NCBI GenBank assembly: GCA_001768235.1
Contig: MENK01000001.1
Coordinates: 82,267 to 146,266, forward strand
Source of the DNA: Bacteroidetes bacterium GWB2_32_14
GTDB lineage: Bacteria > Bacteroidota > Bacteroidia > Bacteroidales > UBA12077
Direction of reading: 5' to 3'
DNA: 64,000 bases
Part shown: positions 9,890 to 31,125 of the stretch, in pieces
How the letters are laid out: each line of letters starts with the position of its first letter
Position numbering within the stretch: the stretch's first letter is position 1
Notes under the pieces: model-generated
Told to the model about the DNA's origin: nothing
Databases searched by the model: none
The model's input: only the letters and a program-made list of their open reading frames with translations
Made by a program: the position numbers and the translations under genes

Positions 9890-9891
9890 GA

Positions 9892-13083: not shown

Positions 13084-13110
13084 TGTAACCTCTTATAAAG
13101 TAATTGCGTC
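13084..13110 (+). promoter_or_regulatory. Candidate ECF-type promoter (TGTAACC-N16-CGTC) upstream of the sigma gene
   Basis: The AAC-containing -35-like element and the CGTC -10-like element have ECF-typical spacing. The element ends ~10 nt before ATG 13121. Confidence 0.35.
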
Positions 13111-13120
13111 ATACAAACAA

Positions 13121-14115: not shown

Positions 14116-14236
14116 AACAAGCTGGTAAAACAAAATTCTAAATAGGCCGTAATAAGTTATTGCCTATTTTTTTGCTTTTTAAGTTTTAGAATGTTGATTT
14201 TTACATAAATTTATCTTTTTTAATCAATAGTAAAAA

Positions 14237-14809: not shown

Positions 14810-15533
14810 TTTCGATTTGACAGAAAGATATTTAATGGGCGATTTATCTGCGGAGGAAAGTACTGCTTTCGAGAAACTGATGGAAACAGATACTGAATTA
14901 AAAGCTGAATTAAATCTCGGGAAAGAGATTAATGAAGCAATTCTGGAATCGGATATTATGAATTTGCGCCATACCATGAGTGAAATCATGAATAAAAAAC
15001 AGAAGCCTGTATTCATTAAAAATCCATTTTTATGGCCGGCTACAGCTGCTGTTTTTATTCTGGCCATGATTATTAATACCTTATTTATAAGTTCACCCGC
15101 GGATAAGAATGATATTTTTAAAAAATATTACAAAGCATACCCGTCAGTATATAGCTCGAGAAGTTCTCAAAAACAATTGCGGGATCAACAATGCCTGAGA
15201 ATTGCTTTTGAACAATATGAAAAACCCGATTTTGAAAGTGCCGGTTTGTTGTTTAAAGAAATGTGGATCAAGGATTCAACAAATAATATGGCTAAATTTT
15301 ATTTATCTATAGCATTAATCGAGCAGAACAAAATGAATGAAGCCGAAAAGTATTTAAATGAACTAACTTTAAATAAACAACACTTATTTTATGAGCAATC
15401 GGTATGGTACCTGGCTTTGGTTTATTTAAATAATAATAAACCCGACGAAGCAGAAAGACTGTTAAATAAAATAATCTCGGAAAATTTATCGAATAAAACC
15501 CGGGCTAAGCAAATTCTGAAATCATTGAACTGA
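14796..15533 (+). CDS. Anti-sigma-like single-pass membrane protein with a C-terminal TPR domain (paralog A)
   Basis: Overlaps the sigma gene stop. N-terminal 'ERYLMGDLSAEESTAFEKLM' anti-sigma-type helix, TM 'FLWPATAAVFILAMIINTLFI', then TPR-like repeats ('WYLALVYLNNNKPDEA'). Confidence 0.65.
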   Translation: MKRNNFDLTERYLMGDLSAEESTAFEKLMETDTELKAELNLGKEINEAILESDIMNLRHTMSEIMNKKQKPVFIKNPFLWPATAAVFILAMIINTLFISSPADKNDIFKKYYKAYPSVYSSRSSQKQLRDQQCLRIAFEQYEKPDFESAGLLFKEMWIKDSTNNMAKFYLSIALIEQNKMNEAEKYLNELTLNKQHLFYEQSVWYLALVYLNNNKPDEAERLLNKIISENLSNKTRAKQILKSLN

Positions 15534-15537
15534 TTAT

Positions 15538-18357: not shown

Positions 18358-18577
18358 TTAATTCGTCACAAATTTTTTACAATATACTCTAAAATTGATT
18401 AAAAGTTAGTTTTTTTTGCATTTGTAAAACTCAGTAAATCAAAAGTATAAAAATTATTTTAAAAAAAGTTTAAAAATAATTTCAAAAACCGGGTTACCTT
18501 TTTTAAAAAAACTGCACATATAAGTGGAGAGAGAAACATAATTTTTATAAATAATAAAATCTAAAAAAACCAAAACC

Positions 18578-18736
18578 ATGAAAAGTTTAATTCACTTATT
18601 CGGGCAGGATGAACCCAAAAAATCATTCAAACAATTTGCACAACTCGGTACTAACGATATGCTGCTTGTAAAAGGCGGCGATGGTGATCCAATTGATGAT
18701 GATCTTTGGCCCCCGGTTCCACCGATTCAGAAATAA
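18578..18736 (+). CDS. Double-glycine-leader peptide 1, Cys-free acidic/Pro-rich core (52 aa); absent from the ORF track
   Basis: MKSLIHLFGQDEPKKSFKQFAQLGTNDMLLVKGG|DGDPIDDDLWPPVPPIQK. Hydrophobic residues sit at -4, -7, -12 and -15 relative to GG, as in C39-processed leaders. Confidence 0.7.
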   Translation: MKSLIHLFGQDEPKKSFKQFAQLGTNDMLLVKGGDGDPIDDDLWPPVPPIQK

Positions 18737-18767
18737 AGTTATTGATTTTATTAAAAGAACCAAAGCC

Positions 18768-18932
18768 ATGAAAAGTTTAATTCACTTATTCGGGCAGGAT
18801 GAACCCCAAAAATCATTTAAACAATTTGCACAACTTAGTACTAACGATATGTTGCTTGTAAAAGGCGGCGATGGAGAGCCACAAGACGATCTTTGGCCTC
18901 CAATTCCTCCCTTACCACCAACAACAAAATAA
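18768..18932 (+). CDS. Double-glycine-leader peptide 2, tandem paralog (54 aa)
   Basis: MKSLIHLFGQDEPQKSFKQFAQLSTNDMLLVKGG|DGEPQDDLWPPIPPLPPTTK. The leader DNA is almost identical to peptide 1. The ORF-track start at 18681 is read-through of the spacer. Confidence 0.7.
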   Translation: MKSLIHLFGQDEPQKSFKQFAQLSTNDMLLVKGGDGEPQDDLWPPIPPLPPTTK

Positions 18933-18994
18933 TATTTAAAACCTGAAAACCCAAAAGTTATTTTAAATATAAACCGTTCTAAAATTTAAAGTAT

Positions 18995-19747
18995 ATGAAT
19001 AGTTACAACCCTATTGTAGATAAATATATTTACGGGGAACTCGATACCGACGAAATGGTAGCTTTTGAGCAGTTGCTGGCAAACGATTCCCGTGTAAAAA
19101 AGGAGTATCATTTATACAACGATATAAACCATGCCATACTCGAGAAGGATGTTATGGTACTCCGCGGTACTCTCGATGGAATATATAATGAAATTGCCGA
19201 GCCAAAAGAAAAATATATTTCATCGGTTTTCTCTAAACGCAAGATGTATTACGCTGCCGCTTCGCTTGCCATGTTAATGGCTACAGGTGGTATTGTTAAC
19301 CAGTTAGCAAAAAACGACATGGGTAACGAAGCAATTTACAGCAAATATTTTACTCCTTACGAAGTAGCTGTTACTTATCGTTCAGGGAATGAAGAGGCTG
19401 ACAAACTGCTTTTATACGCGCTCCAGAAATACGAAGATGAGGAATATGATAAAGCTGTTGTTCTTTTCGAACAGGTACTCGAAAAACGAAATAATGATAT
19501 GGCTGCTAATTTATATTCAGGTATTTCTCTTATGGAAACTGAAAAATACCAAAAAGCAACACATTCGTTTCAGGCAATTATTGCACAAAATGATAACTTA
19601 TTTACTGAACAGGCAAAATGGTACCTGGCAATGTGTTACATTAAAACAAACAGTGTTTCTAAAGCAGAGAATATTTTAAATGATTTAATTGTTAAAAACA
19701 GCTATTATAAAGATATAGCCAAAAAAGTACTTAAAGAACTGGATTAA
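18995..19747 (+). CDS. Anti-sigma-like single-pass membrane TPR protein (paralog B of 14796..15533), with no adjacent sigma gene
   Basis: Same layout and alignable motifs as paralog A ('DKYIYGELDTDEMVAFEQLL'; TM 'YYAAASLAMLMATGGIV'; 'WYLAMCYIKTNSVSKAE'). Confidence 0.65.
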   Translation: MNSYNPIVDKYIYGELDTDEMVAFEQLLANDSRVKKEYHLYNDINHAILEKDVMVLRGTLDGIYNEIAEPKEKYISSVFSKRKMYYAAASLAMLMATGGIVNQLAKNDMGNEAIYSKYFTPYEVAVTYRSGNEEADKLLLYALQKYEDEEYDKAVVLFEQVLEKRNNDMAANLYSGISLMETEKYQKATHSFQAIIAQNDNLFTEQAKWYLAMCYIKTNSVSKAENILNDLIVKNSYYKDIAKKVLKELD

Positions 19748-19765
19748 CAATAAAATTTAAAAACA

Positions 19766-20488
19766 ATGAAACCACAATCTGGCACCATTAGTCGGGATGA
19801 CATTAAAGAAAGTAATGTTTCCGATAGCACCAGGAGTAGTTTTCTTTCGCATATATCGCATGGTATAAGAACGCCTTTAAACTCCATCATGGGTTTTTCC
19901 AATTTATTATTAGACAGGCAGCTTGTTGATGGTAAGCAAATTGAATATGCAAGGCGCATAGTTTCCAGCAGTAATGTATTGTTAAATTTTGTAGAGAACC
20001 TGATCGATTTGTCGCAATTCGATTCAAATAAATACAAGGTTACCCAACAGCAAGTTGATTTAAATTCATTGCTATGGAAAATAGCCGAAGATTTTATTAT
20101 TCAGAAAATTGATAAGGATTATTCTGAAATTGAACTTTCGGTGAATATCCATTCAGGAATCGAAGATTTTTTAATAACTACCGATTATGTATTGCTGAAA
20201 AAATCGTTAAACAGGCTTGTTGAGTTAGTTGCTGCTATTTATAAAACCGGGAAAATCGAGTTGGGATATTGCATTGAAAACAACCATGTACTTAAAATAT
20301 ATGTTCGTGAAAATAGCGACGAATATTTTAAACAGCAGGGCAACCTGGAGTTTAGGGATGATAACGGGGAAGATATGTTTAATGATTTCAATTTCGAAGT
20401 GCTTGTTCGTTCGATAGATCTTATTGGCGGGCGGGTTTGTACTGACTCAATTATGAATGAATATTATATCGAATTGCCAATAAATTGA
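19766..20488 (+). CDS. Soluble histidine-kinase-like protein: intact HisKA H-box, degenerate ATPase domain
   Basis: 'FLSHISHGIRTPLNSIMGFSNLL' is a good H-box. I could find no N-box (NxxxNAxK), DxGxG or GxGxGL in the C-terminal half. No TM helix. Confidence 0.65.
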   Translation: MKPQSGTISRDDIKESNVSDSTRSSFLSHISHGIRTPLNSIMGFSNLLLDRQLVDGKQIEYARRIVSSSNVLLNFVENLIDLSQFDSNKYKVTQQQVDLNSLLWKIAEDFIIQKIDKDYSEIELSVNIHSGIEDFLITTDYVLLKKSLNRLVELVAAIYKTGKIELGYCIENNHVLKIYVRENSDEYFKQQGNLEFRDDNGEDMFNDFNFEVLVRSIDLIGGRVCTDSIMNEYYIELPIN

Positions 20489-20547
20489 AAACAAAGATTT
20501 AAAACAATTATATAAAATAAATTAGAAAATAATAATACTAAAATACC

Positions 20548-20901
20548 ATGACAACATTTAATATATACTTACCAACAAAAAACGGGAAAATAGGAGTAGA
20601 GCTTAAACATATTCTTTACTTCGAATCCCTGGGCGACACCAATTTTATGGTGTTAAACAATGATGAAAAAATCGAGTTGTTAATGGCCGTTGATGAAATT
20701 GAGCAACTGCTGTGTTACCGTGGATTTTTCAGGTTTACACAAAACTACCTTGTAAACCTTAAAGCTGTTCAGCTTATATTCCCTGGCGATGCGTCGAAAG
20801 TGGTTCTCGAAAATGGTAAAGAAATTTTTGCACCGCAAAGCCGCCGTGAAGAACTTTTTAGAGAACTCGAGAAAGTGTACCAGGTTCACGCGACTATATA
20901 A
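20548..20901 (+). CDS. Stand-alone LytTR DNA-binding domain protein (no receiver domain)
   Basis: 117 aa. LytTR-like 'ILYFESLGDTNFMV...FFRFTQNYLVNLKAV'. The usual H-[RK]-S triad is replaced by T-Q-N. Confidence 0.7.
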   Translation: MTTFNIYLPTKNGKIGVELKHILYFESLGDTNFMVLNNDEKIELLMAVDEIEQLLCYRGFFRFTQNYLVNLKAVQLIFPGDASKVVLENGKEIFAPQSRREELFRELEKVYQVHATI

Positions 20902-20930
20902 TACAAGTTCTAAATAGTTTGTGTTTTTAA

Positions 20931-20969
20931 GTTCGGCTTGGTTTCCTTAACGGGAATACCTAGCCGAAC
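20931..20969 (+). terminator. Hairpin between the two LytTR genes
   Basis: GTTCGGCT...AGCCGAAC 8-bp stem with a long, partly paired loop. No clear T-tract. Confidence 0.35.
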
Positions 20970-21006
20970 AATTTACATTTAGTCTTGATTCTTAAAAATA
21001 AAATGT

Positions 21007-21366
21007 ATGATTGATTTAAATGGAAAAATATACATCCAATCCGAAGATGAAAAAATAATCCAAATTGAAGAAATAAAAAATATTGTTTATTTAGAAGCCG
21101 ACAATAGAAAAACGAAAGTTTATTGCTTCAACGGGAATCAGTATTTAATTAATAAATGCCTGAGTTACATAGAAGAAAGGATTACAAATAAAAATTTCTT
21201 TAAGATCCATAAATCATTTATCATTAATGTTGATTATTTAAAAAGTGTTAACTACAAAGGTGAAAAAAATGTAGTTCTTGAAAATGATATTAAAATTCAA
21301 ATAGCTTGTCGAAAATATCCTGAATTCAAGAGATTTTTGAAAGAGAAATTTTCGTTTTTTCAGTAA
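21007..21366 (+). CDS. Stand-alone LytTR DNA-binding domain protein (no receiver domain)
   Basis: 119 aa. Canonical 'IVYLEADNRKTKVY...FFKIHKSFIINVDYLKSV'. Confidence 0.8.
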   Translation: MIDLNGKIYIQSEDEKIIQIEEIKNIVYLEADNRKTKVYCFNGNQYLINKCLSYIEERITNKNFFKIHKSFIINVDYLKSVNYKGEKNVVLENDIKIQIACRKYPEFKRFLKEKFSFFQ

Positions 21367-21667
21367 ATGGTACTGTAATAGATTCAGACTAAATATATTC
21401 CCTTATTCGTTTTAACGATTGTTATAAAAAAGTTAACAAGTTTTAGTCAAAAATTTAATTGCGAAAATGCAAACTTTAGTTACGATAAAGTAATAAAATG
21501 CAACGATCATGTATTTGAACGGTTAGAACTAAATAATGAGGATTTTGATATAAGAATATTATGTCTAATTTAGGTTGTTTGAGTTCATTAAAAAAGCTCG
21601 GGTAGTTTATCGGTAAAGCAGGTATGAAAGAAAACTATGAAAATTAATTTAAAATAAAAGGCACGTT

Positions 21668-23287
21668 TTGAAAGAATCATTGATTTATATACTGAAAAGA
21701 ATTCTGAAAGAGAACAGGATTAAAGTTGACGAAAAAGAGCTGGAGTTTCAACTATTAAGCCATCCGTCGTACCCCAGCTTACATTCAGTTACGGGTGTTT
21801 TAGATCATTTTGCAATTAGTAACCTCGCGTTGGAAGTTCCTAAAAATATTGAAACTTTAAACCAATTACCCAGGTTTTTTCTTGCTTATATTAAAGATAT
21901 AAATAACGATGATTTAGTTTTGGTTACGAATAAAGATTCTAAAATATGTTTAATATATAATGAAAAAAGAACGGAAACTTTATCGACAGATAAATTTTTA
22001 AATGCATGGACAGGAGTAATTGTTGGAGTTGAAAAAGATAACGAAGTTGTTCCAAAAACGAACCCATTAGATTTAACCTTATTTACTTCATTTTTAACGA
22101 TAGTTTTATTAATTATCTTGTTTTTCTCTTTTAAACCGGATTTATTTCAGTCCCTGCATTTCTTATTATCATTTGCCGGATTAGCAATTAGTATAGTTAT
22201 TGTAAAACACGAGCTGGGTTTTCATTCTAAAATCGCAGATAAATTTTGTTCTGGAAATATTGATAAAATAAATTGTGATGATGTATTGAAATCGAAAGCA
22301 GCAAATTTTTTCGGAGTTTTTAAATTAAGTGATGTTGGAATTATTTATTTTTTATCCCTAACAGTATCCTGGCTATTATTATCAATGAATAAAGCAGGAT
22401 ATGATTCTTTAATTGTTATTTCAGTTTTAGCTATACCTTTTACTTTTTATTCAATAATTTATCAATATTTTGTTGTAAAAAAATGGTGTTTACTATGTTT
22501 AAGTGTAGTTTTAATATTGTGGTTGCAGGCAACTTCTCTTTTTATTGTTGATATAGATATTACCAGTTTATCTTTTACCTATAATAGTTTACTATTAGTT
22601 GCTTTTAGCTTCTTGCTCACAACCGTTTTTTGGCAATTTGTATTGCCTAAAATGAAAAAAGAAAAGGAATTAAGTATATTAAAAATTGAACATTACAAGT
22701 TTAAACGAAACTACAGCATATTTAATGCGCTTATATCAAGGTATGTTCAAATGAATACAGCAATCAATGGTACTAATGAGATTGTATTTGGGGATATGAA
22801 TAACCTTTTTAAAATTACAATTATTACGAACCCATTGTGCAGTTTTTGTAAAGGAGCACACGAACTGGTCGAAAACCTGTTAAAAAGCGGGAATAAGAAT
22901 ATTCAAATAACCATAAGATTTAATGTAAACCTGAATCGTGATGCTACTGATAATAAAATAGCCCTGAGATTATTAGAACTATACAATGTATCTGGTATAG
23001 AACAATGTTTAAACGCGATGCATGATATTTATGGTAAACTGTTACCCAAGAATTGGCTGGAAAAATGGGGCGAAGCCGGTAACCCCCAATATATTGAAAT
23101 ATTAAGGGCAGAAAAAGAGTGGTGTAAGCAAAACAATATCAACTTCACTCCTGAAATACTAATAAACGGGAGACCACTTCCAAAAGAATATGAAAGAAAT
23201 GATTTATTGTACTTTGTAGAAGATGTAGTTGAAAATGAGCAACAAAAAATTGAAAGCTCAATTTCAGAATTAGAATATACATCATAA
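21668..23287 (+). CDS. Three-domain membrane protein: catalytic-Cys-less C39-like domain, VKOR domain, thioredoxin/DsbA-like domain
   Basis: The N-terminal ~125 aa resemble a C39 fold, but 'SHPSYPSL' sits where the exporter has 'MDCGPSCL'. VKOR loop Cys pair 'CSGNIDKINC' and membrane CxxC 'WCLLC'. C-terminal 'NPLCSFCKGAH' CxxC. TTG start. Confidence 0.7.
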   Translation: MKESLIYILKRILKENRIKVDEKELEFQLLSHPSYPSLHSVTGVLDHFAISNLALEVPKNIETLNQLPRFFLAYIKDINNDDLVLVTNKDSKICLIYNEKRTETLSTDKFLNAWTGVIVGVEKDNEVVPKTNPLDLTLFTSFLTIVLLIILFFSFKPDLFQSLHFLLSFAGLAISIVIVKHELGFHSKIADKFCSGNIDKINCDDVLKSKAANFFGVFKLSDVGIIYFLSLTVSWLLLSMNKAGYDSLIVISVLAIPFTFYSIIYQYFVVKKWCLLCLSVVLILWLQATSLFIVDIDITSLSFTYNSLLLVAFSFLLTTVFWQFVLPKMKKEKELSILKIEHYKFKRNYSIFNALISRYVQMNTAINGTNEIVFGDMNNLFKITIITNPLCSFCKGAHELVENLLKSGNKNIQITIRFNVNLNRDATDNKIALRLLELYNVSGIEQCLNAMHDIYGKLLPKNWLEKWGEAGNPQYIEILRAEKEWCKQNNINFTPEILINGRPLPKEYERNDLLYFVEDVVENEQQKIESSISELEYTS

Positions 23288-23303
23288 AAGACCTTTTTCC
23301 CGG

Positions 23304-23401
23304 GGGGAAGGTTTATAAAGAAATTCTATTGCGAAGAATAAACCGAAACTTGACGGTTTAAAAAAGTTCAAGATTTTCTTTAACTAAAAATTCTTAATAA
23401 A
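23304..23401 (+). promoter_or_regulatory. Cassette upstream element, copy 1 (conserved promoter/operator-like repeat)
   Basis: Contains GCGAAGAATAAACCGAAACTTGACGG (23331-23356) and TTCAAG (23367-23372). TTGACGG lies 52 nt before the ATG. Confidence 0.55.
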
Positions 23402-23572
23402 ATGAAAGATTTAAAAAATTTAAAAGGTGCTAAAGTTCTTGGCAAAACAGAACAAAAAGCTATTAAGGGCGGAGTAATAGTTATTTGTGAAGGATGTCCG
23501 CCAATATCCGATTGTTGTGTAAATAACATTTGTGGCAAAATAGGTATAGGTGGAAAATGTTATGCCATTTAG
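23402..23572 (+). CDS. GG-leader Cys-rich bacteriocin-like precursor A (56 aa, 6 Cys in the core); absent from the ORF track
   Basis: MKDLKNLKGAKVLGKTEQKAIKGG|VIVICEGCPPISDCCVNNICGKIGIGGKCYAI. Confidence 0.75.
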   Translation: MKDLKNLKGAKVLGKTEQKAIKGGVIVICEGCPPISDCCVNNICGKIGIGGKCYAI

Positions 23573-23588
23573 TTTTATTTTATTCAGG

Positions 23589-23631
23589 TTAACTAGGAAT
23601 TATCTGGATTTTTCAGATAACTTCTAGTTAA
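23589..23631 (+). terminator. Hairpin after precursor A
   Basis: TTAACTAGGAATTATCTG / CAGATAACTTCTAGTTAA, 16 of 18 positions complementary. Confidence 0.5.
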
Positions 23632-23809
23632 TTATTTAGGTGGAATCCACAGTTTGCCTGACTTTAAAAAAGCAGTTGAAAATCAGGGTTTTATGCACGT
23701 GACATGCAGTTGTAACAGCTAAATGTTATTTTGAAGTGCTATGTAATATTTGCGATTTTTTTATTCTGCATACAAGTCAGAAATTGAATGCATACCACGA
23801 AATAATTTA

Positions 23810-23908
23810 CTCAAGGAAGATTTAAAAAGAAATTCATTCGCGAAGAATAAACCGAAACTTGACGGTTTTAAAATGCTCAAGATATTTTAACCTAAAATTT
23901 CTAATAAA
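23810..23908 (+). promoter_or_regulatory. Cassette upstream element, copy 2
   Basis: Differs from copy 3 at about five positions in 99 nt by my count. TTGACGG at 23859-23865 (50 nt before the ATG); CTCAAG at 23876-23881. Confidence 0.6.
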
Positions 23909-24055
23909 ATGAAAGATTTAAAGAAAATGAAAGGTGTTAAGATTCTTAGCAAAAAGGAGCAAAAAGCTATTAAAGGCGGATATGCTTGCAGAGAACCTGA
24001 AATGTGGTGCCCTCCCGGATCGATTTGTGTTGATGGGCTTTGTCGTCCAGTATAA
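23909..24055 (+). CDS. GG-leader Cys-rich bacteriocin-like precursor B (48 aa, 4 Cys)
   Basis: MKDLKKMKGVKILSKKEQKAIKGG|YACREPEMWCPPGSICVDGLCRPV (C-x6-C-x5-C-x4-C). Confidence 0.75.
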   Translation: MKDLKKMKGVKILSKKEQKAIKGGYACREPEMWCPPGSICVDGLCRPV

Positions 24056-24081
24056 TAGCAGATACGATTATTAACTAATTA

Positions 24082-24115
24082 AGAAGTTGTCTGAAAAAAT
24101 ATTCTGGCAACTTCT
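24082..24115 (+). terminator. Hairpin after precursor B
   Basis: AGAAGTTG ... CAACTTCT stem. Confidence 0.4.
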
Positions 24116-24198
24116 CTTAAAAATCATTACCTCCCCCTTGATATTTCCCCGGGGGAATAAAAAAGTTTAACATCAGTAATTGAATAAAAACTATTTTT

Positions 24199-24297
24199 CT
24201 AAAGGAAGATTTAAAAAGAAATTCTCTCGCGAAGAATAAACCGAAACTTGACGGTTTTAAAATGCTCAAGATATTTTAACCTAAAATTCTTAATAAA
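24199..24297 (+). promoter_or_regulatory. Cassette upstream element, copy 3
   Basis: GCGAAGAATAAACCGAAACTTGACGG at 24229-24254 and CTCAAG at 24265-24270. TTGACGG lies 50 nt before the ATG. Confidence 0.6.
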
Positions 24298-24453
24298 ATG
24301 AAAGATTTAAAAAAATTAAAAGGTGCTAAAATTCTTAGCAAAAAGGAGCAAATCTCAATTAAAGGTGGAAAAATTTATTGTGGTGATGGAAAACCTTGTC
24401 CTGTTGGTACAATATGTAATGGGACATGGTGTGAACCATATATTGAGGCATAG
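24298..24453 (+). CDS. GG-leader Cys-rich bacteriocin-like precursor C (51 aa, 4 Cys)
   Basis: MKDLKKLKGAKILSKKEQISIKGG|KIYCGDGKPCPVGTICNGTWCEPYIEA (C-x5-C-x5-C-x4-C). Confidence 0.75.
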   Translation: MKDLKKLKGAKILSKKEQISIKGGKIYCGDGKPCPVGTICNGTWCEPYIEA

Positions 24454-24471
24454 TATCAAATTTTAAATATC

Positions 24472-24503
24472 GAGAGAAAATCTTTGGTTTTCTCTCATTT
24501 TTA
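24472..24503 (+). terminator. Hairpin plus T-tract after precursor C
   Basis: GAGAGAAAA / TTTTCTCTC stem followed by ATTTTT. The sequence is related to the hairpin after precursor D. Confidence 0.6.
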
Positions 24504-24604
24504 ATTAAATAAGTTTAGATCGCTTTAAGTTAGAAATAATTAAGAAAGTTGTAAAATACTTACAATAAGTTGTGTTTAATTTTTAACTCAATGATAGCAT
24601 ATAT

Positions 24605-25540
24605 ATGGATATAATTAATAGCATCATAGATTTTGTTAAGGATAACTGGACTACAATATTTAGTGGTATTGGTACAACTATTTTAATTGGAATTCTCGGA
24701 TATATTGGTAAGCGTATGAAAAAAGGAAAAAAAATATCCCAAGAAGAAAAAAAAGTTATAAATCAAAGTGTGAATACTGGAGATAACTCAAAAGTAATTC
24801 AAAGTGCTGAAAACATCATAATTGACAATTCAGATGTTAAAATAAATAATGATTCAAAATCAACAGCCACAGAGCAAACAATTATTGTGCAAGCTGGTAG
24901 AGATGCTATATTGAATGTTAAACAAAGTCCGCCTGACATAAAATTAGTACGAGTAACAGTTGAAGATGATGAAACACAAAGAGGGCTGAAGCAAAAGCTG
25001 AATGTAATAATGAAAAATAATGGAGATAAAAGTGTATTTCTTTTAAGTGGTCATCTAGAGGTTATTGGTTGTGAAGACATTGTAAATCCAAATCATTTTG
25101 GAATGCATTATAAACTTAGTTTTGCTGATTGGAATTATGATGTTGATATTAATAGTGATAACCCTAGCTTTAAGGGACAACATATAATTGAACCAGATGA
25201 AGTAATTAACTTTAATGTCATAGTCGGTAGAAATGAAGGAGGCCTTAATTTATCAGTCTATAAATGTTTATTAAAGTTTAAATTTGATGAACACAAGGAT
25301 TTAGAATGTGGTCCATTTTTCTTGCTTATTTCTGGACCAACTGTTTGGGATGGAGGTTTTCAAGCCTGTGGACCAACTCCTGAACAATGGGGCAGAGCGC
25401 AAGTAGATAACATCAAACGTTTAGACAGTATAGGATATGATTATCGTCATCAAATTCATCCAGATTCAAGAAAATACCTTGAAGAAATAGACCCACATAT
25501 CTTTGAAAAACAAAAAACTAAACACAACACGCGGTCATAA
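24605..25540 (+). CDS. Hypothetical N-terminally membrane-anchored protein (311 aa) interrupting the cassette array
   Basis: Long clean ORF. TM helix 'IFSGIGTTILIGILGYIG', then a low-complexity Asn/Ser/Asp linker and a ~200-aa globular domain. I do not recognise any family motif. Confidence 0.55.
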   Translation: MDIINSIIDFVKDNWTTIFSGIGTTILIGILGYIGKRMKKGKKISQEEKKVINQSVNTGDNSKVIQSAENIIIDNSDVKINNDSKSTATEQTIIVQAGRDAILNVKQSPPDIKLVRVTVEDDETQRGLKQKLNVIMKNNGDKSVFLLSGHLEVIGCEDIVNPNHFGMHYKLSFADWNYDVDINSDNPSFKGQHIIEPDEVINFNVIVGRNEGGLNLSVYKCLLKFKFDEHKDLECGPFFLLISGPTVWDGGFQACGPTPEQWGRAQVDNIKRLDSIGYDYRHQIHPDSRKYLEEIDPHIFEKQKTKHNTRS

Positions 25541-25660
25541 AACATGCCGGTTTCAGTCGGTTTTCGAGCGTTTCGTCCCGCCTCGTAGGTTTGTAACGGG
25601 GGGTACAGACGCAGCCCCGCAATCCGGCACGTTTCATACCGCCAACGTTAGAGTATAGCA
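25541..25660. other. GC-rich, non-coding, structure-prone island of unknown nature
   Basis: Composition jumps sharply relative to the AT-rich surroundings. Complementary segments: ATGCCGG (25544-25550) / CCGGCA (25624-29), and CGGGG...CCCCG around 25597-25619. No ORF. Confidence 0.3.
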
Positions 25661-25697
25661 TGACGGGAAATTAAACTTTACAAAAATGACTGAAGCT

Positions 25698-25750
25698 TTG
25701 ACGGTCAACTAAATGCTCAAGGCAAATTATTAATTAAATAGTAACTTATT
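25698..25750 (+). promoter_or_regulatory. Cassette upstream element, truncated copy 4 (core only)
   Basis: TTGACGG at 25698-25704 (53 nt before the ATG) and CTCAAG at 25716-25721. The distal GCGAAGAATAAACCGAAAC part is absent. Confidence 0.5.
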
Positions 25751-25924
25751 ATGAAAGAATTAAAAAATTTAAAAGGTGCTAAAGTTCTTAGCAAAAAAGA
25801 GCAAATCTCAATTAAAGGCGGATTAGAAATTTGTGATATTTTTGGGCATGATTGCCATGAAGGTTATATTTGCAAATTAGTGAATTCAACCACGGGATGG
25901 TGCATTCCTGTAATCGAAGATTAA
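25751..25924 (+). CDS. GG-leader Cys-rich bacteriocin-like precursor D (57 aa, 4 Cys)
   Basis: MKELKNLKGAKVLSKKEQISIKGG|LEICDIFGHDCHEGYICKLVNSTTGWCIPVIED. Confidence 0.75.
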   Translation: MKELKNLKGAKVLSKKEQISIKGGLEICDIFGHDCHEGYICKLVNSTTGWCIPVIED

Positions 25925-25934
25925 TGTCTTGAAT

Positions 25935-25970
25935 AATGAGAGGGAACTTTTTGGTTTTCTCTCATTATTT
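25935..25970 (+). terminator. Hairpin after precursor D
   Basis: AATGAGAG / CTCTCATT stem. Shares 'tttggttttctctcatt' with the hairpin after precursor C. Confidence 0.55.
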
Positions 25971-26175
25971 AAAATTTAGAATTTAGAATAACTCATTTCT
26001 GCCCAGGATTTTGCCATGGGGCTAATCATTAAATAAAATAGTTTTAAATACAACAGTATCAATACAGAAGCAAATCGATTATAAAAAATCTTTGTAAATA
26101 AATGCAATTTATTTTCTGAATTATTAAAATTAATCCTAAGTCTGTTCAAGAGTTTTTAATATCTTTAAACCAAAA

Positions 26176-28392
26176 ATGCCTTTCCCCTTTTACCAACAGT
26201 TAGATGCCATGGATTGCGGCCCTTCGTGCCTGCGCATGATTGCGAAACATTATGGCAAGTCGTTTTCCTTACAAACCTTGCGCGATAAAAGCTATATTAC
26301 CCGCGAGGGTGTTTCTATGCTGGGTATTAGCGATGCAGCAGAAGCAATTGGATTTCGCAGCATGGGTGTTCGAATTACTTTCGAGCAGTTACTAAACGAA
26401 GCACCAATGCCTTGTATAGCACATTGGAAGCAAAATCACTTTGTGGTGGTTTATAAAATCAAACAAATTCTCCCGTCCCCCTTTAGAAAAGGAGGAGTAT
26501 TTGTACATGTGGCCGATCCGGCACGGGGATTGATAAAATTTACCAAGGAAGAGTTTATGTCGGGTTGGGCTAACACGAAAGAAGCGGGCGAAGATAAAGG
26601 TTTGTGCCTATTGCTGGAAACAACTCCCGACTTTTACAAGTCCGATAATGAAAAATTAAACAAATCGGGTTTCAAATTTTTGTTTTCGTATTTACGACCG
26701 TATAAAAAACTGATTATTCAGCTGGTATTAGGTTTATTGCTGGGTAGTTTATTGCAACTTATTTTTCCATTTTTAACCCAGAGCATTGTCGATAAAGGTA
26801 TCAATAACCAGGATTTGAGCTTTGTAACACTCATTATTATTGCACAACTGGTACTTATTTTTTCGCGAACTATAGTTGAATTTATTCGGAGCTGGATTTT
26901 ATTGCACCTGGGTACACGAATCAATATTTCGTTAATATCCGATTTTCTGATTAAATTAATGAAGTTACCGGTTTCCTTTTTCGATACTAAAATGATTGGT
27001 GACCTTATTCAACGAATTGGCGACCATAAACGTATCGAAAACTTTTTAACATCATCTACATTAAATATCCTGTTCTCATTTGTTAACCTGATCATATTTG
27101 GCATTGTTCTTCTTACATACAGTGTAAACATATTTCTTATTTTCCTTATAGGAAGTACATTATACACGCTTTGGATTTACCTGTTCATGAAAAAACGACG
27201 CGATTTGGATAATCGGAAGTTTGCCCAACTTTCGAGTAATCAAAGCAATGTAATTCAGTTGATTACCGGAATGCAGGAAATAAAACTGAACAACTGTGAA
27301 AAGCAAAAACGATGGGAGTGGGAGAGTATCCAGGCCAAGTTGTTCAAAGTAAATATGGATAGCTTATCATTGAGTCAGTACCAGCAGGCTGGCGGGGTTT
27401 TTATTAACGAAATAAAAAACATTGCAATCACGTTTATTGCAGCCAAATCAGTTATCGACGGACAAATGACTCTGGGTATGATGCTGGCAGTGCAATACAT
27501 CATTGGCCAGTTAAACAGCCCGATTAATCAAATGATTGGATTCTTGCAGGCTACCCAGGATGCGAAAATAAGCCTGGAACGCTTAGGTGAGATTCATCAA
27601 CGCGACAATGAAGAGTCGGACGAAACGCCTAAAATAAGTATTCTGCCTGAACACCGTGATTTAAATATTGATTTAATATCATTCCAGTACGAGGGGCCTC
27701 ATTCGCCTTTTGTGCTCGAAAATGTTGAATTAAATATCCCCGAGAAAAAAATTACAGCTGTAGTAGGTACCAGCGGTAGTGGTAAAACCACACTAATCAA
27801 GCTTTTACTTGGATTTTACGAGCCACAGAAAGGCAAAATAAAACTGGGTGATATTTACCTGAACAATATCAGTAATCGTATGTGGCGCGATAAGTGTGGT
27901 GTTGTTATGCAGGATGGATTTATTTTCTCCGATTCAATAGCAAATAATATTTCTGTTTCAGACGAGTTTCCCGATCGCGAAAAATTACTAAATGCCGTAA
28001 AGGTGGCCAATATACAGGATTTTATTGAATCTCTGCCTTTGGGCTATAATACAAAAATCGGACAGAATGGTGTTGGATTGAGCCAGGGGCAGAAACAACG
28101 AATACTCATTGCCCGTGCGGTGTATAAAAACCCTGAATTTATTTTCCTTGATGAGGCTACCAATGCACTCGACGCAAATAATGAACGTGTTATCATGGAA
28201 AACCTCGATCAGTTTTTTAAAGGGAAAACAGTTGTAGTTGTTGCACACCGATTGAGTACTGTAAAAAATGCCGACCAGATTGTAGTTTTGGAGCAAGGGA
28301 AAATAGTAGAAAGAGGTACCCATGCAGAGTTAACCAGGAAGAAAGGTGCTTATTACGAGTTGGTGAGGAATCAGTTGGAGTTAGGGAATTAA
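26176..28392 (+). CDS. Peptidase-C39-domain ABC transporter (double-glycine leader cleavage and export)
   Basis: N-terminal C39 with a candidate catalytic set (Q in 'YQQLD', C in 'MDCGPSC', H in 'QNHFVVV', D in 'VADPA'). Six-TM ABC membrane domain. Walker A 'GTSGSGKTT', signature 'LSQGQKQR', Walker B 'IFLDEATNALD'. Confidence 0.9.
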   Translation: MPFPFYQQLDAMDCGPSCLRMIAKHYGKSFSLQTLRDKSYITREGVSMLGISDAAEAIGFRSMGVRITFEQLLNEAPMPCIAHWKQNHFVVVYKIKQILPSPFRKGGVFVHVADPARGLIKFTKEEFMSGWANTKEAGEDKGLCLLLETTPDFYKSDNEKLNKSGFKFLFSYLRPYKKLIIQLVLGLLLGSLLQLIFPFLTQSIVDKGINNQDLSFVTLIIIAQLVLIFSRTIVEFIRSWILLHLGTRINISLISDFLIKLMKLPVSFFDTKMIGDLIQRIGDHKRIENFLTSSTLNILFSFVNLIIFGIVLLTYSVNIFLIFLIGSTLYTLWIYLFMKKRRDLDNRKFAQLSSNQSNVIQLITGMQEIKLNNCEKQKRWEWESIQAKLFKVNMDSLSLSQYQQAGGVFINEIKNIAITFIAAKSVIDGQMTLGMMLAVQYIIGQLNSPINQMIGFLQATQDAKISLERLGEIHQRDNEESDETPKISILPEHRDLNIDLISFQYEGPHSPFVLENVELNIPEKKITAVVGTSGSGKTTLIKLLLGFYEPQKGKIKLGDIYLNNISNRMWRDKCGVVMQDGFIFSDSIANNISVSDEFPDREKLLNAVKVANIQDFIESLPLGYNTKIGQNGVGLSQGQKQRILIARAVYKNPEFIFLDEATNALDANNERVIMENLDQFFKGKTVVVVAHRLSTVKNADQIVVLEQGKIVERGTHAELTRKKGAYYELVRNQLELGN

Positions 28393-28490
28393 AAAAGTTG
28401 CAGCAGTATGTAGCAGCAGGAAGCGGAAGTATTTAGTTAAGGTTAGTTGGTAGTATAAAAATTATAACTAAAATTTTAATATAATAGACA

Positions 28491-28862
28491 ATGGAGTTTG
28501 GGTTTAAACAGTTAAAAGTTTACCAAAAGGCATATCAGCTCGCAAAAGAGATATTTGAAATCAGCAAATCATTTCCTATAGAAGAGAAGTATTCTTTAAC
28601 AGATCAGATAAGAAGATCATCAAGAGCTGTTTGTGCTAATATTGCGGAAGCATATCGAAAAAGACGATATCCTAAACACTTTACATGTAAAATTACTGAC
28701 TCAGACGCTGAAGCTAGTGAGACTGTTGTTTGGCTTAATTTTGCAATGGATTCTAATTACATTTCTAAAGAAATTCAAATGCGATTAGAAAATGAATATG
28801 AAGAAGTTGAAAGAATGTTAGGTTCAATGGCCGATCATCCTGAAAAATTTTTACCAAAATAA
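28491..28862 (+). CDS. Four-helix-bundle protein ('23S rRNA intervening-sequence protein' family)
   Basis: 'FKQLKVYQKAYQLAKEIFEISKSFP..EKYSLTDQIRRSSRAVCANIAEAY' is the typical family signature. Wedged between the exporter and HlyD genes. Confidence 0.8.
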   Translation: MEFGFKQLKVYQKAYQLAKEIFEISKSFPIEEKYSLTDQIRRSSRAVCANIAEAYRKRRYPKHFTCKITDSDAEASETVVWLNFAMDSNYISKEIQMRLENEYEEVERMLGSMADHPEKFLPK

Positions 28863-28910
28863 ATTATACTGCATACTGCAACTGTCAACTGCAGCTTAAT
28901 AATAAATAGT

Positions 28911-30206
28911 ATGGAAGAACAAAATAAAATTGAACTTCGCTCGAATGATGTACAAGAAATTCTCAGCCGTCCACCAAAATGGATTGTGCGATGGGGTATT
29001 ACAATAATTCTGATTGTTGTTGTTATCTTGATTGCAGGGAGTTGGTTTTTTAAATATCCCGACATTATTACTGCAAAAATAGTATTGACTACAGAAAACC
29101 CACCATCTCCCGTAGTTGCTAAAACATCGGGCAAAATTCAGAACTTGTTTGTTACCGATAAGCAGGAAGTAAAAAAGAATCAGGTATTGGCAGTTATCGA
29201 GAATCCCGCAAATTTCAATGATATAAGTATAATCATTGAAAAATTAAACAACTTTAATTCAGATTCTTATTCCAATGAAATTTTTTCAGGGAGTTATAAT
29301 CTTGGCACTATTCAATCCTATTATGCTGATTTTATCAGAAATCTTGATGAATACCAAAAACTTGTTCAGATGGATTATCACCAGAAAAAAATCAATCTCT
29401 TGAAAAAAGAAATTATACAATACACAAAATACCTCGCAAATTTAAAAGTGCAAAACAACCTGCAAAAAAGAGAATACGAATTAATAGTGAACCAATTCTA
29501 TCGTGATTCAACTTTACACGATCAGCAGTTAATATCTGAGGCTGAATTTGAGAAATCGAAGTCATCCTTATTGTCAAAACAGTTTAGTCTTGAACAATCA
29601 AACATTGCACTTACCAATACCGAAATTCAGGTTCAAAATATTGAGCAGAGCATAGCAGAACTTGAGCTGCAGGAAGAAAAACAATTGTCGGATAAAAAGC
29701 TGCTAATCAAACAGTCGTGTGAAAATTTAATTGCAGCTATCGATTCCTGGAAATACCAGTATGTTTTAATTGCATCAACCGATGGTAAAGTTACATTTAA
29801 CAAGTTCTGGAATGAGAATCAATCGGTAAAATCAGGAGAAACAGTACTTACAATAATTCCGGATAATGAGGGTGAAATAATTGGTAAGGTTCAATTGTCG
29901 TTTCAGGGTGCCGGGAAAGTAAAAGAAGGACAACAGGTAAATATTCGATTCGATAATTATCCATATATGGAATTTGGAATGGTTAAAGGAGTGGTAAAAT
30001 CAATATCGCAAGTTCCCGATAATGATTATTATACTGCCGAAATACAGTTGCCCGGCGGATTAATTACATTTTACAATGAAAAACTCGATTTTAAGCAGGA
30101 AATGCAAGGTACAGCAGAGATTGTAACTGAAGATTTCCGGTTATTGGAACGTATTGTAAGGCCATTGCGGTACGTTTTAAATAAAAATACTAAGTTTGGG
30201 GGTTAA
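28911..30206 (+). CDS. HlyD-family membrane fusion/accessory protein for the peptide exporter
   Basis: N-terminal TM helix, long coiled-coil middle and a C-terminal beta-barrel-like region, immediately downstream of the C39 ABC transporter. Confidence 0.8.
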   Translation: MEEQNKIELRSNDVQEILSRPPKWIVRWGITIILIVVVILIAGSWFFKYPDIITAKIVLTTENPPSPVVAKTSGKIQNLFVTDKQEVKKNQVLAVIENPANFNDISIIIEKLNNFNSDSYSNEIFSGSYNLGTIQSYYADFIRNLDEYQKLVQMDYHQKKINLLKKEIIQYTKYLANLKVQNNLQKREYELIVNQFYRDSTLHDQQLISEAEFEKSKSSLLSKQFSLEQSNIALTNTEIQVQNIEQSIAELELQEEKQLSDKKLLIKQSCENLIAAIDSWKYQYVLIASTDGKVTFNKFWNENQSVKSGETVLTIIPDNEGEIIGKVQLSFQGAGKVKEGQQVNIRFDNYPYMEFGMVKGVVKSISQVPDNDYYTAEIQLPGGLITFYNEKLDFKQEMQGTAEIVTEDFRLLERIVRPLRYVLNKNTKFGG

Positions 30207-30396
30207 AAAGTTGTCAGAATTCAGAAATACGTTTACTTTGATATTATAGTATAAATAACGTTTTTAAAAAATGAAAAGAATATTTATTAAAAATAGGGAT
30301 GAATCATGAACCCTGAGAATTTAATTTATTTCTGAATCCTGTTTTTGATTAAATGGTATCACGATAATATTGATGGATTTTAAAATATAGATTGAA

Positions 30397-31125
30397 ATGT
30401 TAAAACATCCTTTTGGAATATATAATTTCCCTGTTAAATCGTACGATTCAGATCAGAATGGGAGATTAACTCTTCAGACACTGTTTCATTTCTTGCAAGA
30501 ATGTGCTTGGAATAATGCCCGAATGAACGATTTTGGTTACGAGTATCTCGAAAAAGAAAACACATACTGGGTTTTATCACGTGTATTGGTTCAAATAAAT
30601 GAATATCCTGAATGGAAAGATGAAATCAGCATAAAGACATGGCCTAAAGGTGCCGATGGATATTTTGCCTTACGTGATTTTCTTATTTTTAAAGATGACA
30701 AAGTAATTGGCCGTGCAACAACATCGTGGCTGATTCTCGATCGTGAAACAAAACGTCCCCGACGACTCGAAAATTTCAATTTTATTCACCAAAATTTTTT
30801 AAACGAAAGTGCCATTGATAAAAAACCGGATAAAATAAATTTGAATACAAGTTTGGCTGAACTCGATCGGCGCAAAGTATATCCGAGTGATTTAGATGTG
30901 AATAAACACGTGAATAATGCTACTTATGTTCGCTGGATGCTTGATGCTTATTTTTCGAATCATTCAAAATTAATTTCTGAATTTGAAATTAATTTTTTAT
31001 CTGAATTACTCATGCATGATGAATTTACAGTATTTGAAAGTTATACTAACGAAGAATTGTTTTATATCCTGAAAACTAACCAAGATAAAGAAGTTTGCAA
31101 AGCAAGATTGATTGCAAGCAAATAG
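30397..31125 (+). CDS. Acyl-ACP thioesterase
   Basis: Double hot-dog layout. 'LQECAWNNA...YWVLSR' and 'DLDVNKHVNNATYVRW' resemble FatA/B-like thioesterases. Confidence 0.75.
   Translation: MLKHPFGIYNFPVKSYDSDQNGRLTLQTLFHFLQECAWNNARMNDFGYEYLEKENTYWVLSRVLVQINEYPEWKDEISIKTWPKGADGYFALRDFLIFKDDKVIGRATTSWLILDRETKRPRRLENFNFIHQNFLNESAIDKKPDKINLNTSLAELDRRKVYPSDLDVNKHVNNATYVRWMLDAYFSNHSKLISEFEINFLSELLMHDEFTVFESYTNEELFYILKTNQDKEVCKARLIASK

Follow-up and report, generated by a model that had tools for sequence, protein, structure and literature searches.

Whether a bacterium of the phylum Bacteroidota could govern its bacteriocins through a peptide signal is the question raised by a gene island of the uncultured Bacteroidales organism Bacteroidetes bacterium GWB2_32_14, which we analyzed within a 64,000-nucleotide stretch of contig MENK01000001.1 (hereafter, the window, to which all coordinates refer). 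Peptide-based control of bacteriocin production is textbook knowledge for Firmicutes; to our knowledge it is undescribed for Bacteroidota, and a limited literature search agrees. A preliminary description, made from the sequence alone, had read in about 12 kb two classes of double-glycine (GG) leader peptides, an exporter, a disulfide-forming fusion protein and regulators that lack receiver domains, and had proposed either an analog of the Blp/Com circuits or a new regulatory logic. This proposal is supported by a constant chassis of regulators and exporter that carries a variable cargo; receiver-less LytTR regulators of bacteriocin genes are known from other systems. In our assessment the locus is probably a modular peptide-toxin island: a Blp-like bacteriocin platform under peptide control, whose wiring is non-canonical.

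The functional unit is larger than first described and extends from 14237 to 30206 (Table 1). The sigma/anti-sigma/CHAT module at 14237-18357 belongs to it and contributes three upstream genes, which encode a sigma factor-like protein of the extracytoplasmic function (ECF) type (SIGL), a second anti-sigma-like TPR protein (ASTPR0) and, on the minus strand, a TPR-CHAT protein. Within the narrower interval, the list of open reading frames (ORFs) confirms every gene previously named, on the plus strand and in its place, and Pfam and NCBIfam scans of the window ORFs bear out all of the domain calls. The anti-sigma-like membrane protein (ASTPR) has TPR_19 by Pfam and a weak anti-sigma match, and the protein described as histidine kinase-like with a degenerate ATPase (HKL) has HisKA only, with neither HATPase_c nor a transmembrane (TM) segment. 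There is indeed neither a receiver nor a membrane kinase, as LytTR is the sole domain of both LytTR proteins and the HisKA-only protein is soluble. The tripartite fusion is recovered by Pfam as Peptidase_C39 (weakly), VKOR and Thioredoxin_4, and the catalytic peptidase-containing ABC transporter (PCAT) and its HlyD partner by Peptidase_C39 and HlyD_3 matches. Two genes inside the interval had gone unnamed, one for an orphan protein of 311 aa and one for a 23S_rRNA_IVP protein.

Table 1. Features of the island and their positions in the window.
Feature	Position	Strand	Match or remark
SIGL, divergent ECF-type sigma-like protein, 190 aa	14237-14809	+	TIGR02937; Sigma70_r4_2 weak
ASTPR0, anti-sigma-like single-pass membrane protein, C-terminal TPR	14787-15533	+	TPR_19; weak anti-sigmaE, residues 12-55
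TPR-CHAT caspase-like protease, 939 aa	15538-18357	-	CHAT 1.3e-56, TPR_12 (Pfam)
WPP-operon promoter-region motif	18492-18528	+	GGKTCACCTTTT-N-GGAAT.AATARGTGAGA family (alignment)
WPP GG-leader peptide 1	18578-18736	+	34-aa leader, core DGDPIDDDLWPPVPPIQK
WPP GG-leader peptide 2	18768-18932	+	start ATG 18768; core DGEPQDDLWPPIPPLPPTTK
ASTPR, 250 aa, anti-sigma-like N-domain, one TM helix, periplasmic TPR	18995-19747	+	TPR_19
HKL, soluble HisKA-only pseudo-kinase, 240 aa	19766-20488	+	HisKA 56 bits, no HATPase_c
LytTR-A, stand-alone, 117 aa	20548-20901	+	LytTR only (Pfam)
LytTR-B, stand-alone, 119 aa	21007-21366	+	LytTR 67 bits (Pfam)
C39-like (non-catalytic)/6-TM VKOR/DsbA-like fusion, 539 aa	21668-23287	+	Peptidase_C39 22.2 bits, VKOR 62 bits, Thioredoxin_4
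Cys-peptide promoter cassette 1	23306-23401	+	core 23345-23372
Cys-rich GG peptide 1	23402-23572	+	6 Cys in core
Cys-peptide promoter cassette 2	23815-23908	+	core 23853-23881
Cys-rich GG peptide 2	23909-24055	+	4 Cys in core; L002 ortholog, dN/dS 0.18
Cys-peptide promoter cassette 3	24204-24297	+	core 24242-24270
Cys-rich GG peptide 3	24298-24453	+	4 Cys in core; terminator hairpin 24472-24496 follows
Orphan 311-aa protein, N-terminal TM helix	24605-25540	+	ORF list; possibly immunity or insertion
Cys-peptide promoter core 4	25691-25721	+	
Cys-rich GG peptide 4	25751-25924	+	4 Cys in core; L002 ortholog, dN/dS 0.11
PCAT, catalytic peptidase-containing ABC transporter	26176-28392	+	Peptidase_C39 109 bits, ABC_membrane, ABC_tran
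23S_rRNA_IVP/bAvd-like four-helix-bundle protein, passenger	28491-28862	+	Pfam/NCBIfam
HlyD-family periplasmic adaptor	28911-30206	+	HlyD_3; TIGR01843 111 bits

The modular nature of the island emerges from comparison with related loci (designated by L numbers). A scan of genome contigs with a single fusion protein as query found nothing; an alignment query led to 282 GTDB species genomes, out of which 80 loci with the cargo cassette were fetched. Five orthologous loci with the HisKA-only protein (L081-L085) came from a metagenome scan, and L161-L168 from the genomic context of HKL relatives. The preliminary description had suggested asking whether the genes co-occur in the same order across Bacteroidota; such co-conservation was found in 13 loci, with 33-56% identity in the HisKA-only protein. 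The order recurs in L002, L004, L081-L085 and L161-L168, of which L082-L085 and L161-L162 are partial or rearranged. It begins with an ECF sigma factor and a 138-aa protein, the sigma-like and anti-sigma-like TPR genes, the divergent CHAT gene and the GG peptide, and proceeds through the second anti-sigma-like TPR gene, the HisKA-only gene, LytTR-A, zero to two further LytTR genes, the cargo, PCAT (with or without the IVP gene), HlyD and an acyl-ACP thioesterase.

Two layers can be distinguished. The chassis consists of the sigma/anti-sigma-TPR pair, TPR-CHAT, the operon of the Cys-free peptides (here termed WPP peptides) with ASTPR, HKL and LytTR, and PCAT and HlyD at the far end. The cargo consists of the second LytTR gene, the VKOR fusion and four Cys-rich GG peptides, each behind a promoter cassette. 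In the syntenic chassis loci with both ends visible, the cargo is inserted between the LytTR genes and PCAT, and it differs from locus to locus: a VKOR fusion with Cys peptides in the window, L002, L004 and L166; a LanB/LanC lanthipeptide in L163; a radical SAM protein with a peptide in L165; LanM, YcaO and radical SAM in L161; an unknown cargo in L167; and none in L081, L164 and L168. At the chromosomal site shared with the window, L081 has no LytTR-B and no fusion, and neither Cys peptides nor an orphan gene. We are highly confident of this two-layer architecture, with its chassis and swappable cargo, and of the bacteriocin-like nature of the island.

The cargo cassette is also widespread on its own in Bacteroidota, in the 282 species genomes mentioned above. 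The 80 fetched loci belong to Bacteroidales, Marinilabiliales (Labilibaculum, Ancylomarina, Marinifilum) and Flavobacteriaceae (Tenacibaculum, Aquimarina, Lutibacter and others), and in most of them the usual order is the fusion, 1-11 tandem Cys-rich GG peptides, PCAT and HlyD. What lies upstream depends on the lineage: a receiver-containing regulator that by eye looks LuxR-type, the sigma/anti-sigma-TPR/CHAT trio, a 113-aa LytTR protein, or nothing recognizable.

The six short ORFs of the window, for which NCBIfam models gave weak matches or none, are real genes. They have orthologs in other genomes and are under purifying selection (dN/dS 0.11-0.55), so the lack of conservation as coding sequence that the preliminary description had set against its own reading is not seen. 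By the method of Nei-Gojobori, dN/dS is 0.11-0.49 for the Cys-rich class, two members of which have clear orthologs in L002, and 0.18-0.55 in pairwise comparison for the Cys-free class. The Cys-rich peptides have leaders of 24 aa, with I-4, E-8 and L-12, and cores of 24-33 aa. The two Cys-free genes are tandem copies, as had been described, with 91% nucleotide identity and a dN/dS of 0.18 between them; their supposed Pro-richness is not a trait of the family, whose members have in common an invariant W-P-P preceded by acidic residues. The leader conforms to the double-glycine consensus (V-4, M-7, D-8, L-12, F-15), a pattern kept in the family alignment (MKTLKN.F...KS.N.FS..L....M(L/I).IKGG). 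The core is short, acidic and free of Cys, with an invariant D-x-W-P-P motif, and ends in a highly variable C-terminal tail. We found 15 such W-P/A-P peptides across 12 loci that bear the pseudo-kinase; the L081 homolog is divergent and lacks Trp, and about 77 VKOR-only loci yielded nothing convincing. A protein-database search with the WPP peptide retrieves only itself and its neighbor. The peptide is kept whatever the cargo, including in the no-cargo loci L081, L164 and L168, and its gene heads the regulator operon behind a conserved promoter motif of its own. In L161, where the chassis lies in a genomic context different from that of the other loci, near-identical WPP genes at 1085-1246 and 6729-6890 flank a LanM-type lanthipeptide cluster, and the regulator genes are followed by genes for YcaO and radical-SAM proteins.

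The product of the gene that follows the WPP peptides, ASTPR, is a candidate receptor or switch. It has a weak match to the anti-sigma model NF052375, and KRK precedes its TM helix. Among 13 orthologs the periplasmic part averages 63% identity, versus 50% for the cytoplasmic N-domain. The idea of pherotypes, in which the variable WPP tails would co-vary with their receptor, found no support: conservation within the protein is highest in the periplasmic TPR region. ASTPR0 is a paralog (31% identical), and each of the two has orthologs of its own.

HKL belongs to a family of about 90 clusters retrieved by protein search, all HisKA-only and, save for a few fragments, 240-260 aa long; those with organism names are all from metagenome-assembled genomes (MAGs) of Bacteroidota. 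Across 41 homologs the H-box S-H-G-I-R-T-P-L-N is invariant, with Gly in place of the acidic residue that follows the His, and the conserved glycine motifs of ATP binding are not among the invariant columns. An AlphaFold2 (AF2) model (pLDDT 77.6) has a DHp hairpin and a CA-like alpha/beta domain in which the lid is short and of low confidence or disordered. The best sequence and fold matches in the PDB are GacS and RetS (Foldseek top 6dk7/6dk8), then ordinary kinases and DivL. HKL thus models as a RetS-like DHp with a lid-less CA domain. LytTR-A follows HKL in 14 of 14 loci, at distances from a 4-nt overlap to a gap of about 110 nt; in several loci the HKL and LytTR-A genes touch or share a few nucleotides, which suggests that the two proteins form a complex. 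LytTR-B is present in zero to two copies in chassis loci: every cargo-bearing chassis locus has at least one gene of this type, whereas two of the three no-cargo loci have none and L168 has one. In six Flavobacteriaceae/Bacteroidales loci, the VKOR gene is also immediately preceded by a gene of the LytTR-B kind (LytB-like). The LytTR proteins of all related loci likewise lack a receiver.

The sigma/anti-sigma/CHAT module lies upstream. SIGL scores 36.2 bits against the sigma70-ECF model TIGR02937, below its cut-off of 42.9, and matches Sigma70_r4_2 with E = 0.034; its orthologs in L163 and L165-L168 have precomputed Sigma70_r2 matches. The gene overlaps ASTPR0 and is conserved in chassis loci. 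TPR-CHAT has the expected His (LAMHT) and Cys (SSCNSG) motifs and is predicted to be periplasmic, with a signal- or lipoprotein-like segment at its N-terminus and, near its C-terminus, a TM helix followed by K/R; its gene is divergent to that of the WPP peptide in every chassis locus where that flank is present. Eight Flavobacteriaceae loci (L039, L062, L066, L067, L070, L078-L080) have sigma-like and anti-sigma-like TPR genes divergent from a small gene, TPR-CHAT and the VKOR fusion, so that the sigma/anti-sigma/CHAT trio recurs with this cassette in another taxonomic order, Flavobacteriales, and without the WPP peptide, pseudo-kinase and LytTR-A. Directly upstream of SIGL in the window, at 13001-14115, a canonical ECF sigma factor (Sigma70_r2 and r4_2) has a membrane protein of 138 aa as its partner; L081 and L163-L168 have kept both, and the 138-aa partner is also found in L002.

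The WPP operon and the Cys-rich peptides are preceded by two distinct conserved promoter types. The WPP-operon motif is conserved in 14 upstream regions from 12 loci. The repeated promoters previously noted before the four Cys-rich peptides are a 72-nt repeat, 88-89% identical, upstream of three of them and a core motif before all four. The consensus of this element, of about 45 nt, is TCGCGAAGAATAGAC-N-AAACCTTGA..GTCTT.AAATG.TCAAGG; it occurs 114 times on the plus strand in the 80 related loci, versus 1-5 times in shuffles, and in most of 116 unique sites it ends, with its -10-like TCAAG, 26-30 nt before the ATG. It can be read as a palindromic operator, CTTGA-N14-TCAAG around TTTTAAAA, and also, as weighed below, as a promoter of sigmaE type. 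The candidate assignment of LytTR-B as its driver was dropped: the motif is found in 7 of 8 loci with a small LytTR gene and also in 40 of 72 without one, and we therefore assign no regulator to it. The region upstream of SIGL has neither peptide motif; it has a housekeeping, sigmaA-type TAGATTTG box (TAnnTTTG). That upstream of PCAT is poorly conserved, and neither region points to a regulator. A sigma-70-type promoter scan was not above chance (76 matches against a shuffle expectation of 72.8), and a terminator scan gave one convincing terminator only. In the window, L002 and L004, a hairpin lies between LytTR-A and the gene that follows it. In L004, at about 9874-9906, a perfect 12-nt direct repeat, ATACGCAAAT(A/G)C, with a 21-nt period lies upstream of the VKOR-fusion gene at 10001; its geometry is that of a classic LytTR binding site, and the equivalents in the window and L002 are only weak.

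The transporter that the two peptide classes would share has the complete catalytic Gln/Cys/His/Asp set, as read from the motifs QQLDAMDCGPSC (Q-x5-DCG), NHFVVV and ADP, and matches TIGR01193/TIGR03796. The fusion protein, in contrast, lacks the catalytic Cys and His of C39 in its N-domain, which is 135 aa long and has no signal peptide. In Foldseek this domain resembles the peptidase domain of PCAT1/ComA, and the C-domain of the fusion the oxidoreductases DsbA, BdbD and ScsC. The N-domain may be likened to the C39-like domain of HlyB, which is non-catalytic and tethers the secretion substrate. The cysteines C194, C203, C274xxC277 and C391xxC394 are invariant in 115 homologs and comprise the set of VKOR-thioredoxin fusions: a loop Cys pair, a CxxC in a TM helix and a fused Trx-fold CxxC domain. 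More than 600 relatives are found in databases. A profile of the fusion gave no match among PDB sequences, and the VKOR segment alone weakly matched Synechococcus VKOR.

From these components a mechanism can be proposed. PCAT would cut both peptide classes after the GG and export both. The mature, acidic WPP peptide (about 18-20 aa) would act as an autoinducer-like signal, read by the conserved periplasmic TPR domain of ASTPR, possibly with cleavage by TPR-CHAT. This would free cytoplasmic partners, LytTR-A via the pseudo-kinase and/or the ECF-like sigma factor, which would in turn activate both the WPP operon and the promoters of the cargo. The Cys-rich precursors would be oxidized ahead of export: the C39-like domain of the fusion, itself non-catalytic, would hold their leader while the adjacent DsbA-like domain installs two or three disulfides, passing electrons to quinone through VKOR. 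Oxidation on the cytoplasmic face would suit an exporter that draws its substrate from the cytoplasm. As a whole, namely a Bacteroidota pheromone circuit wired unlike any described, in which the WPP peptide is sensed by a TPR anti-sigma-like protein, perhaps with the help of CHAT, and relayed by a RetS-like HKL to LytTR and/or sigma, with swappable cargo and an inverted VKOR-DsbA oxidase, this remains a tentative model that we would not expect to hold in every part.

Several observations weigh against it. The locus has neither a gene for an outer-membrane channel nor a clear immunity gene, and a peptide of about 2 kDa must re-cross the outer membrane to act between cells. Consistent LytTR-type, GC-containing 9-bp repeats with a 20-22-nt period are absent from 7 WPP and 8 Cys promoters, and the Cys-peptide element, which also fits a sigmaE-like promoter, recurs in 40 of 72 loci with no LytTR gene in the vicinity. 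The chassis loci all come from MAGs or metagenome contigs. Most of them, moreover, occupy one chromosomal site, between the DUF6249/ECF-sigma pair and the acyl-ACP thioesterase, so part of the co-conservation may be plain vertical synteny; the only other genomic contexts are those of L161, L082 and L083. Carried to its end, this would make the neighborhood an inheritance of a single Bacteroidales lineage, with regulators that control unrelated genes, and a mechanosensitive channel, an M64 peptidase, DUF6249 and the thioesterase are indeed syntenic in the flanks of most chassis loci. We hold that account to be very improbable: the CHAT, WPP, TPR, HKL and LytTR genes stay together beside genes for ribosomally synthesized and post-translationally modified peptides in L161/L162, L082 and L083 despite different flanks, in the syntenic chassis loci with both ends visible the cargo has gone in between the LytTR genes and PCAT, a PCAT is required for WPP peptides, and the sigma trio recurs beside VKOR cassettes in Flavobacteriales. 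Whether the WPP peptide is the signal is evenly balanced for us. It might instead be an exported effector (an anionic antimicrobial, an adhesion-modulating peptide, or a substrate or decoy of CHAT), with the regulators answering another cue such as envelope stress or competitor molecules. Since the no-cargo loci L081, L164 and L168 keep the exporter, the WPP peptide could be its product; the tails vary as those of toxins do, the candidate receptor is highly conserved and does not follow them, and a caspase-like protease could conceivably cleave at the acidic residues that precede W-P-P. We nonetheless consider an effector rather unlikely for a short, Cys-free, acidic core with an invariant D-x-W-P-P, whose gene always comes first in the regulator operon behind its own promoter and is retained with any cargo. 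Its position and behavior are those of BlpC/ComC-type pheromone genes. The cargo promoters invite another explanation, in that the Cys-peptide element can be read as a sigmaE-like promoter, GAAACTT-N16/17-TCAAG. SIGL would then drive it once TPR-CHAT had cleaved the anti-sigma-like partner, in the manner of a DdvA/DdvS system split over several proteins, and the LytTR proteins would tune the WPP operon or repress as BlpS does. There are precedents in DdvA (PMC11506125) and the BlpS repressor (PMC8545106); with TCAAG only 26-30 nt from the ATG in most of the 116 sites, a core promoter of its own could not fit in between; and at least eight Flavobacteriaceae loci have the trio immediately 5' of the VKOR gene. 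Nevertheless, the motif occurs in many loci with no sigma gene nearby and, at up to 4 mismatches, is missing from 6 of the 8 sigma/CHAT loci; the element is palindromic, as for a dimeric regulator; the no-cargo loci keep the trio, which must then have other targets; and SIGL itself has a housekeeping-type promoter without a copy of the motif. Control of the cargo by SIGL is accordingly a possibility that we take seriously and still think improbable.

The orientation of the fusion is weighed separately from the circuit, and the analysis rests here on helix count and charge bias only. The AF2 model (pLDDT 87.6) has six TM helices, which puts the N-domain and the DsbA-like domain on the same membrane face as the VKOR redox sites. 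Over the 115 homologs the mean number of K+R is 0.03 in loop a-b, 0.17 in c-d and 0.50 in e-f, compared with 1.77 in the loop before the CxxC helix and 6.5 after helix 6, both on the side of the CxxC and the DsbA-like domain; in Synechococcus VKOR, conversely, the equivalents of loops c-d and e-f carry positive charges. Because of this charge pattern, the absent signal peptide and the availability of leaders only before export, the redox parts likely face the cytoplasm, as would befit a leader-guided oxidase. The opposite, canonical arrangement would put the Cys loop, the CxxC and the DsbA-like and C39-like domains in the periplasm and have the peptides oxidized after delivery by PCAT. The cytoplasm is reducing, the Foldseek matches of the C-domain include periplasmic and extracytoplasmic oxidoreductases, and the characterized bacterial VKOR-Trx and DsbA-like proteins that we know of act outside the cytoplasm. 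That DsbA-like domains are extracytoplasmic in the systems known to us, and that the positive-inside rule is only a predictor, also tell against an inverted enzyme. The canonical arrangement would, on the other hand, require export of a 135-aa N-domain that has no signal peptide and whose homologs, the N-domains of PCAT and HlyB, are cytoplasmic; GG leaders are present only until export; and the short loops that would be cytoplasmic have lost K/R (0.17 and 0.50 on average), while the TM3-TM4 loop has gained KK. We therefore regard it as the less probable orientation by a clear measure. A study by Hibender of 2017, to go by its title, reportedly found for the A. pernix VKOR a membrane topology that promotes disulfide formation in two compartments.

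Further features of the island and its surroundings were noted. The orphan gene interrupts the array of Cys peptides; its product has no match in Pfam or NCBIfam and no homolog in the loci scanned. Directly 3' of it, a segment of about 120 nt at 25541-25660 is GC-rich, whereas its surroundings have a GC content of about 32%; this segment occurs once in the window, matches nothing in Rfam and folds no better than shuffles, and it may be the scar of a foreign insertion. An Rfam scan of 17000-31000 returned a chance snoRNA match only. CPBP-family proteins are often associated with bacteriocin immunity. In L002, the position of the orphan gene between the Cys peptides and PCAT is taken (13599-15624) by a radical-SAM/SPASM-like protein and a CPBP-family (Abi-like) membrane protease, both identified by eye from sequence motifs. 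The 23S_rRNA_IVP gene has the same place between PCAT and HlyD in L002, L081, L164 and L165 and is absent in L168. Farther upstream in the window, a secreted protein of 110 aa (9557-9889, minus strand) is built of repeated 'YDYQA(D/K)L' units and adjoins a histidine kinase (8388-9560, minus strand) with an internally duplicated coiled-coil segment in its N-terminal part.

Among known systems, the bacteroidetocin loci are the closest match for the cargo and Blp/Com for the architecture. In the bacteroidetocin (class IIf) loci of Bacteroides and Prevotella, a multi-TM protein and a thiol oxidoreductase have been proposed to form disulfides (Coyne et al., 2019, PMC6671954). Shared with our locus are Cys peptides with GG leaders in Bacteroidota, a PCAT-type exporter and peptide ORFs that are often unannotated (PMC6671954). 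Here, the membrane and oxidoreductase functions reside in one polypeptide with an added non-catalytic C39-like domain, the likeness drawn here being one of function, and the leaders (24 aa) and mature peptides (24-33 aa) differ in length from those of bacteroidetocins (15-16 aa and about 42 aa; PMC6671954). Our locus further has HlyD, tandem peptides each with a promoter cassette and a dedicated regulatory module, whereas the four-gene bacteroidetocin regions have no regulator gene. With streptococcal Blp/Com (BlpC/BlpAB/BlpHR, and the gallocin system GSP-BlpHR-BlpS; PMC8545106) it shares a regulator-linked GG peptide, a common PCAT, LytTR proteins and constant regulatory and transport genes beside a variable bacteriocin region. 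BlpS, a LytTR-only protein of a bacteriocin locus, offers a precedent for a repressor (PMC8545106) and a likeness to the stand-alone LytTR proteins here. Unlike Blp/Com, the island has no membrane histidine kinase, ATP-binding domain or receiver; in their stead are anti-sigma-like TPR proteins, a soluble pseudo-kinase, an ECF-like sigma factor and a periplasmic TPR-CHAT, in a diderm cell. The LytTR regulatory systems HdrRM and BrsRM of S. mutans are receiver-less regulators of bacteriocin genes (Zou et al., 2018, PMC6193735). Like them, our locus co-encodes a stand-alone LytTR protein and a membrane protein without enzymatic domains; in contrast, this membrane partner is anti-sigma-like with TPR and has no DUF3021 or DUF2154 among its Pfam matches, a HisKA-only gene lies between the two, and the hallmark 9-bp direct repeats spaced 12 bp apart were not found in the operon promoter.

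The upstream module is reminiscent of DdvS/DdvA of Myxococcus xanthus, an ECF sigma factor and an anti-sigma factor with a periplasmic TPR-CHAT proposed as site-1 protease (PMC11506125). Common to both are a sigma factor of ECF type (in SIGL a putative one), an anti-sigma or anti-sigma-like protein that crosses the membrane once and has a small domain in the cytoplasm, and a periplasmic TPR-CHAT. The latter is here a separate protein, encoded on the opposite strand, with a predicted signal segment and a membrane anchor at its C-terminus, and the anti-sigma-like proteins have only short TPR segments. The output of DdvS/DdvA is CBASS/CRISPR defense, as opposed to peptide toxins here. RetS, a histidine kinase relative that pairs with GacS, acts by protein-protein contact and not by autophosphorylation. 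The RetS of Pseudomonas aeruginosa (PDB 6dk7, 6dk8, 7n0e) is, with its DHp and CA-like domain, the best structural match of HKL, which differs in being soluble, in having neither sensor nor receiver domains, in the Gly after the H-box His and in lying beside a LytTR gene. Like the VKOR-Trx fusion of Synechococcus (PDB 4nv2/4nv6), the fusion protein has four VKOR cysteines and a fifth helix that leads to a Trx-fold CxxC domain; unlike it, the protein has an extra TM helix, a putative leader-binding N-domain on the redox side, inverted loop charges and a DsbA/BdbD-like Trx part. A limited search of the literature gave no description of a C39-like/VKOR/DsbA fusion, of WPP peptides or of the chassis, and the signaling route and the inverted, leader-guided oxidase could be potentially new in kind.

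What the island means for the biology of the Bacteroidota follows from both of its layers. As a candidate for a circuit in which a peptide signal governs bacteriocin production, it may be the phylum's first. The locus family lends itself to testing, as it supplies a defined peptide motif, a domain that could be the receptor, defined promoters and loci that differ naturally in their cargo. Its composition suggests an arrangement not described so far, in which an anti-sigma-like TPR protein, a HisKA-only pseudo-kinase and LytTR stand beside an ECF/TPR-CHAT module. The promoter cassette of the Cys-rich peptides is a handle for mining unannotated peptide genes. The fusion protein, present in hundreds of Bacteroidota species, would be a leader-guided disulfide oxidase, possibly on the cytoplasmic face; as such, it is relevant to the way in which exported peptides rich in disulfides are made by diderm bacteria, and it could become a tool for their production.

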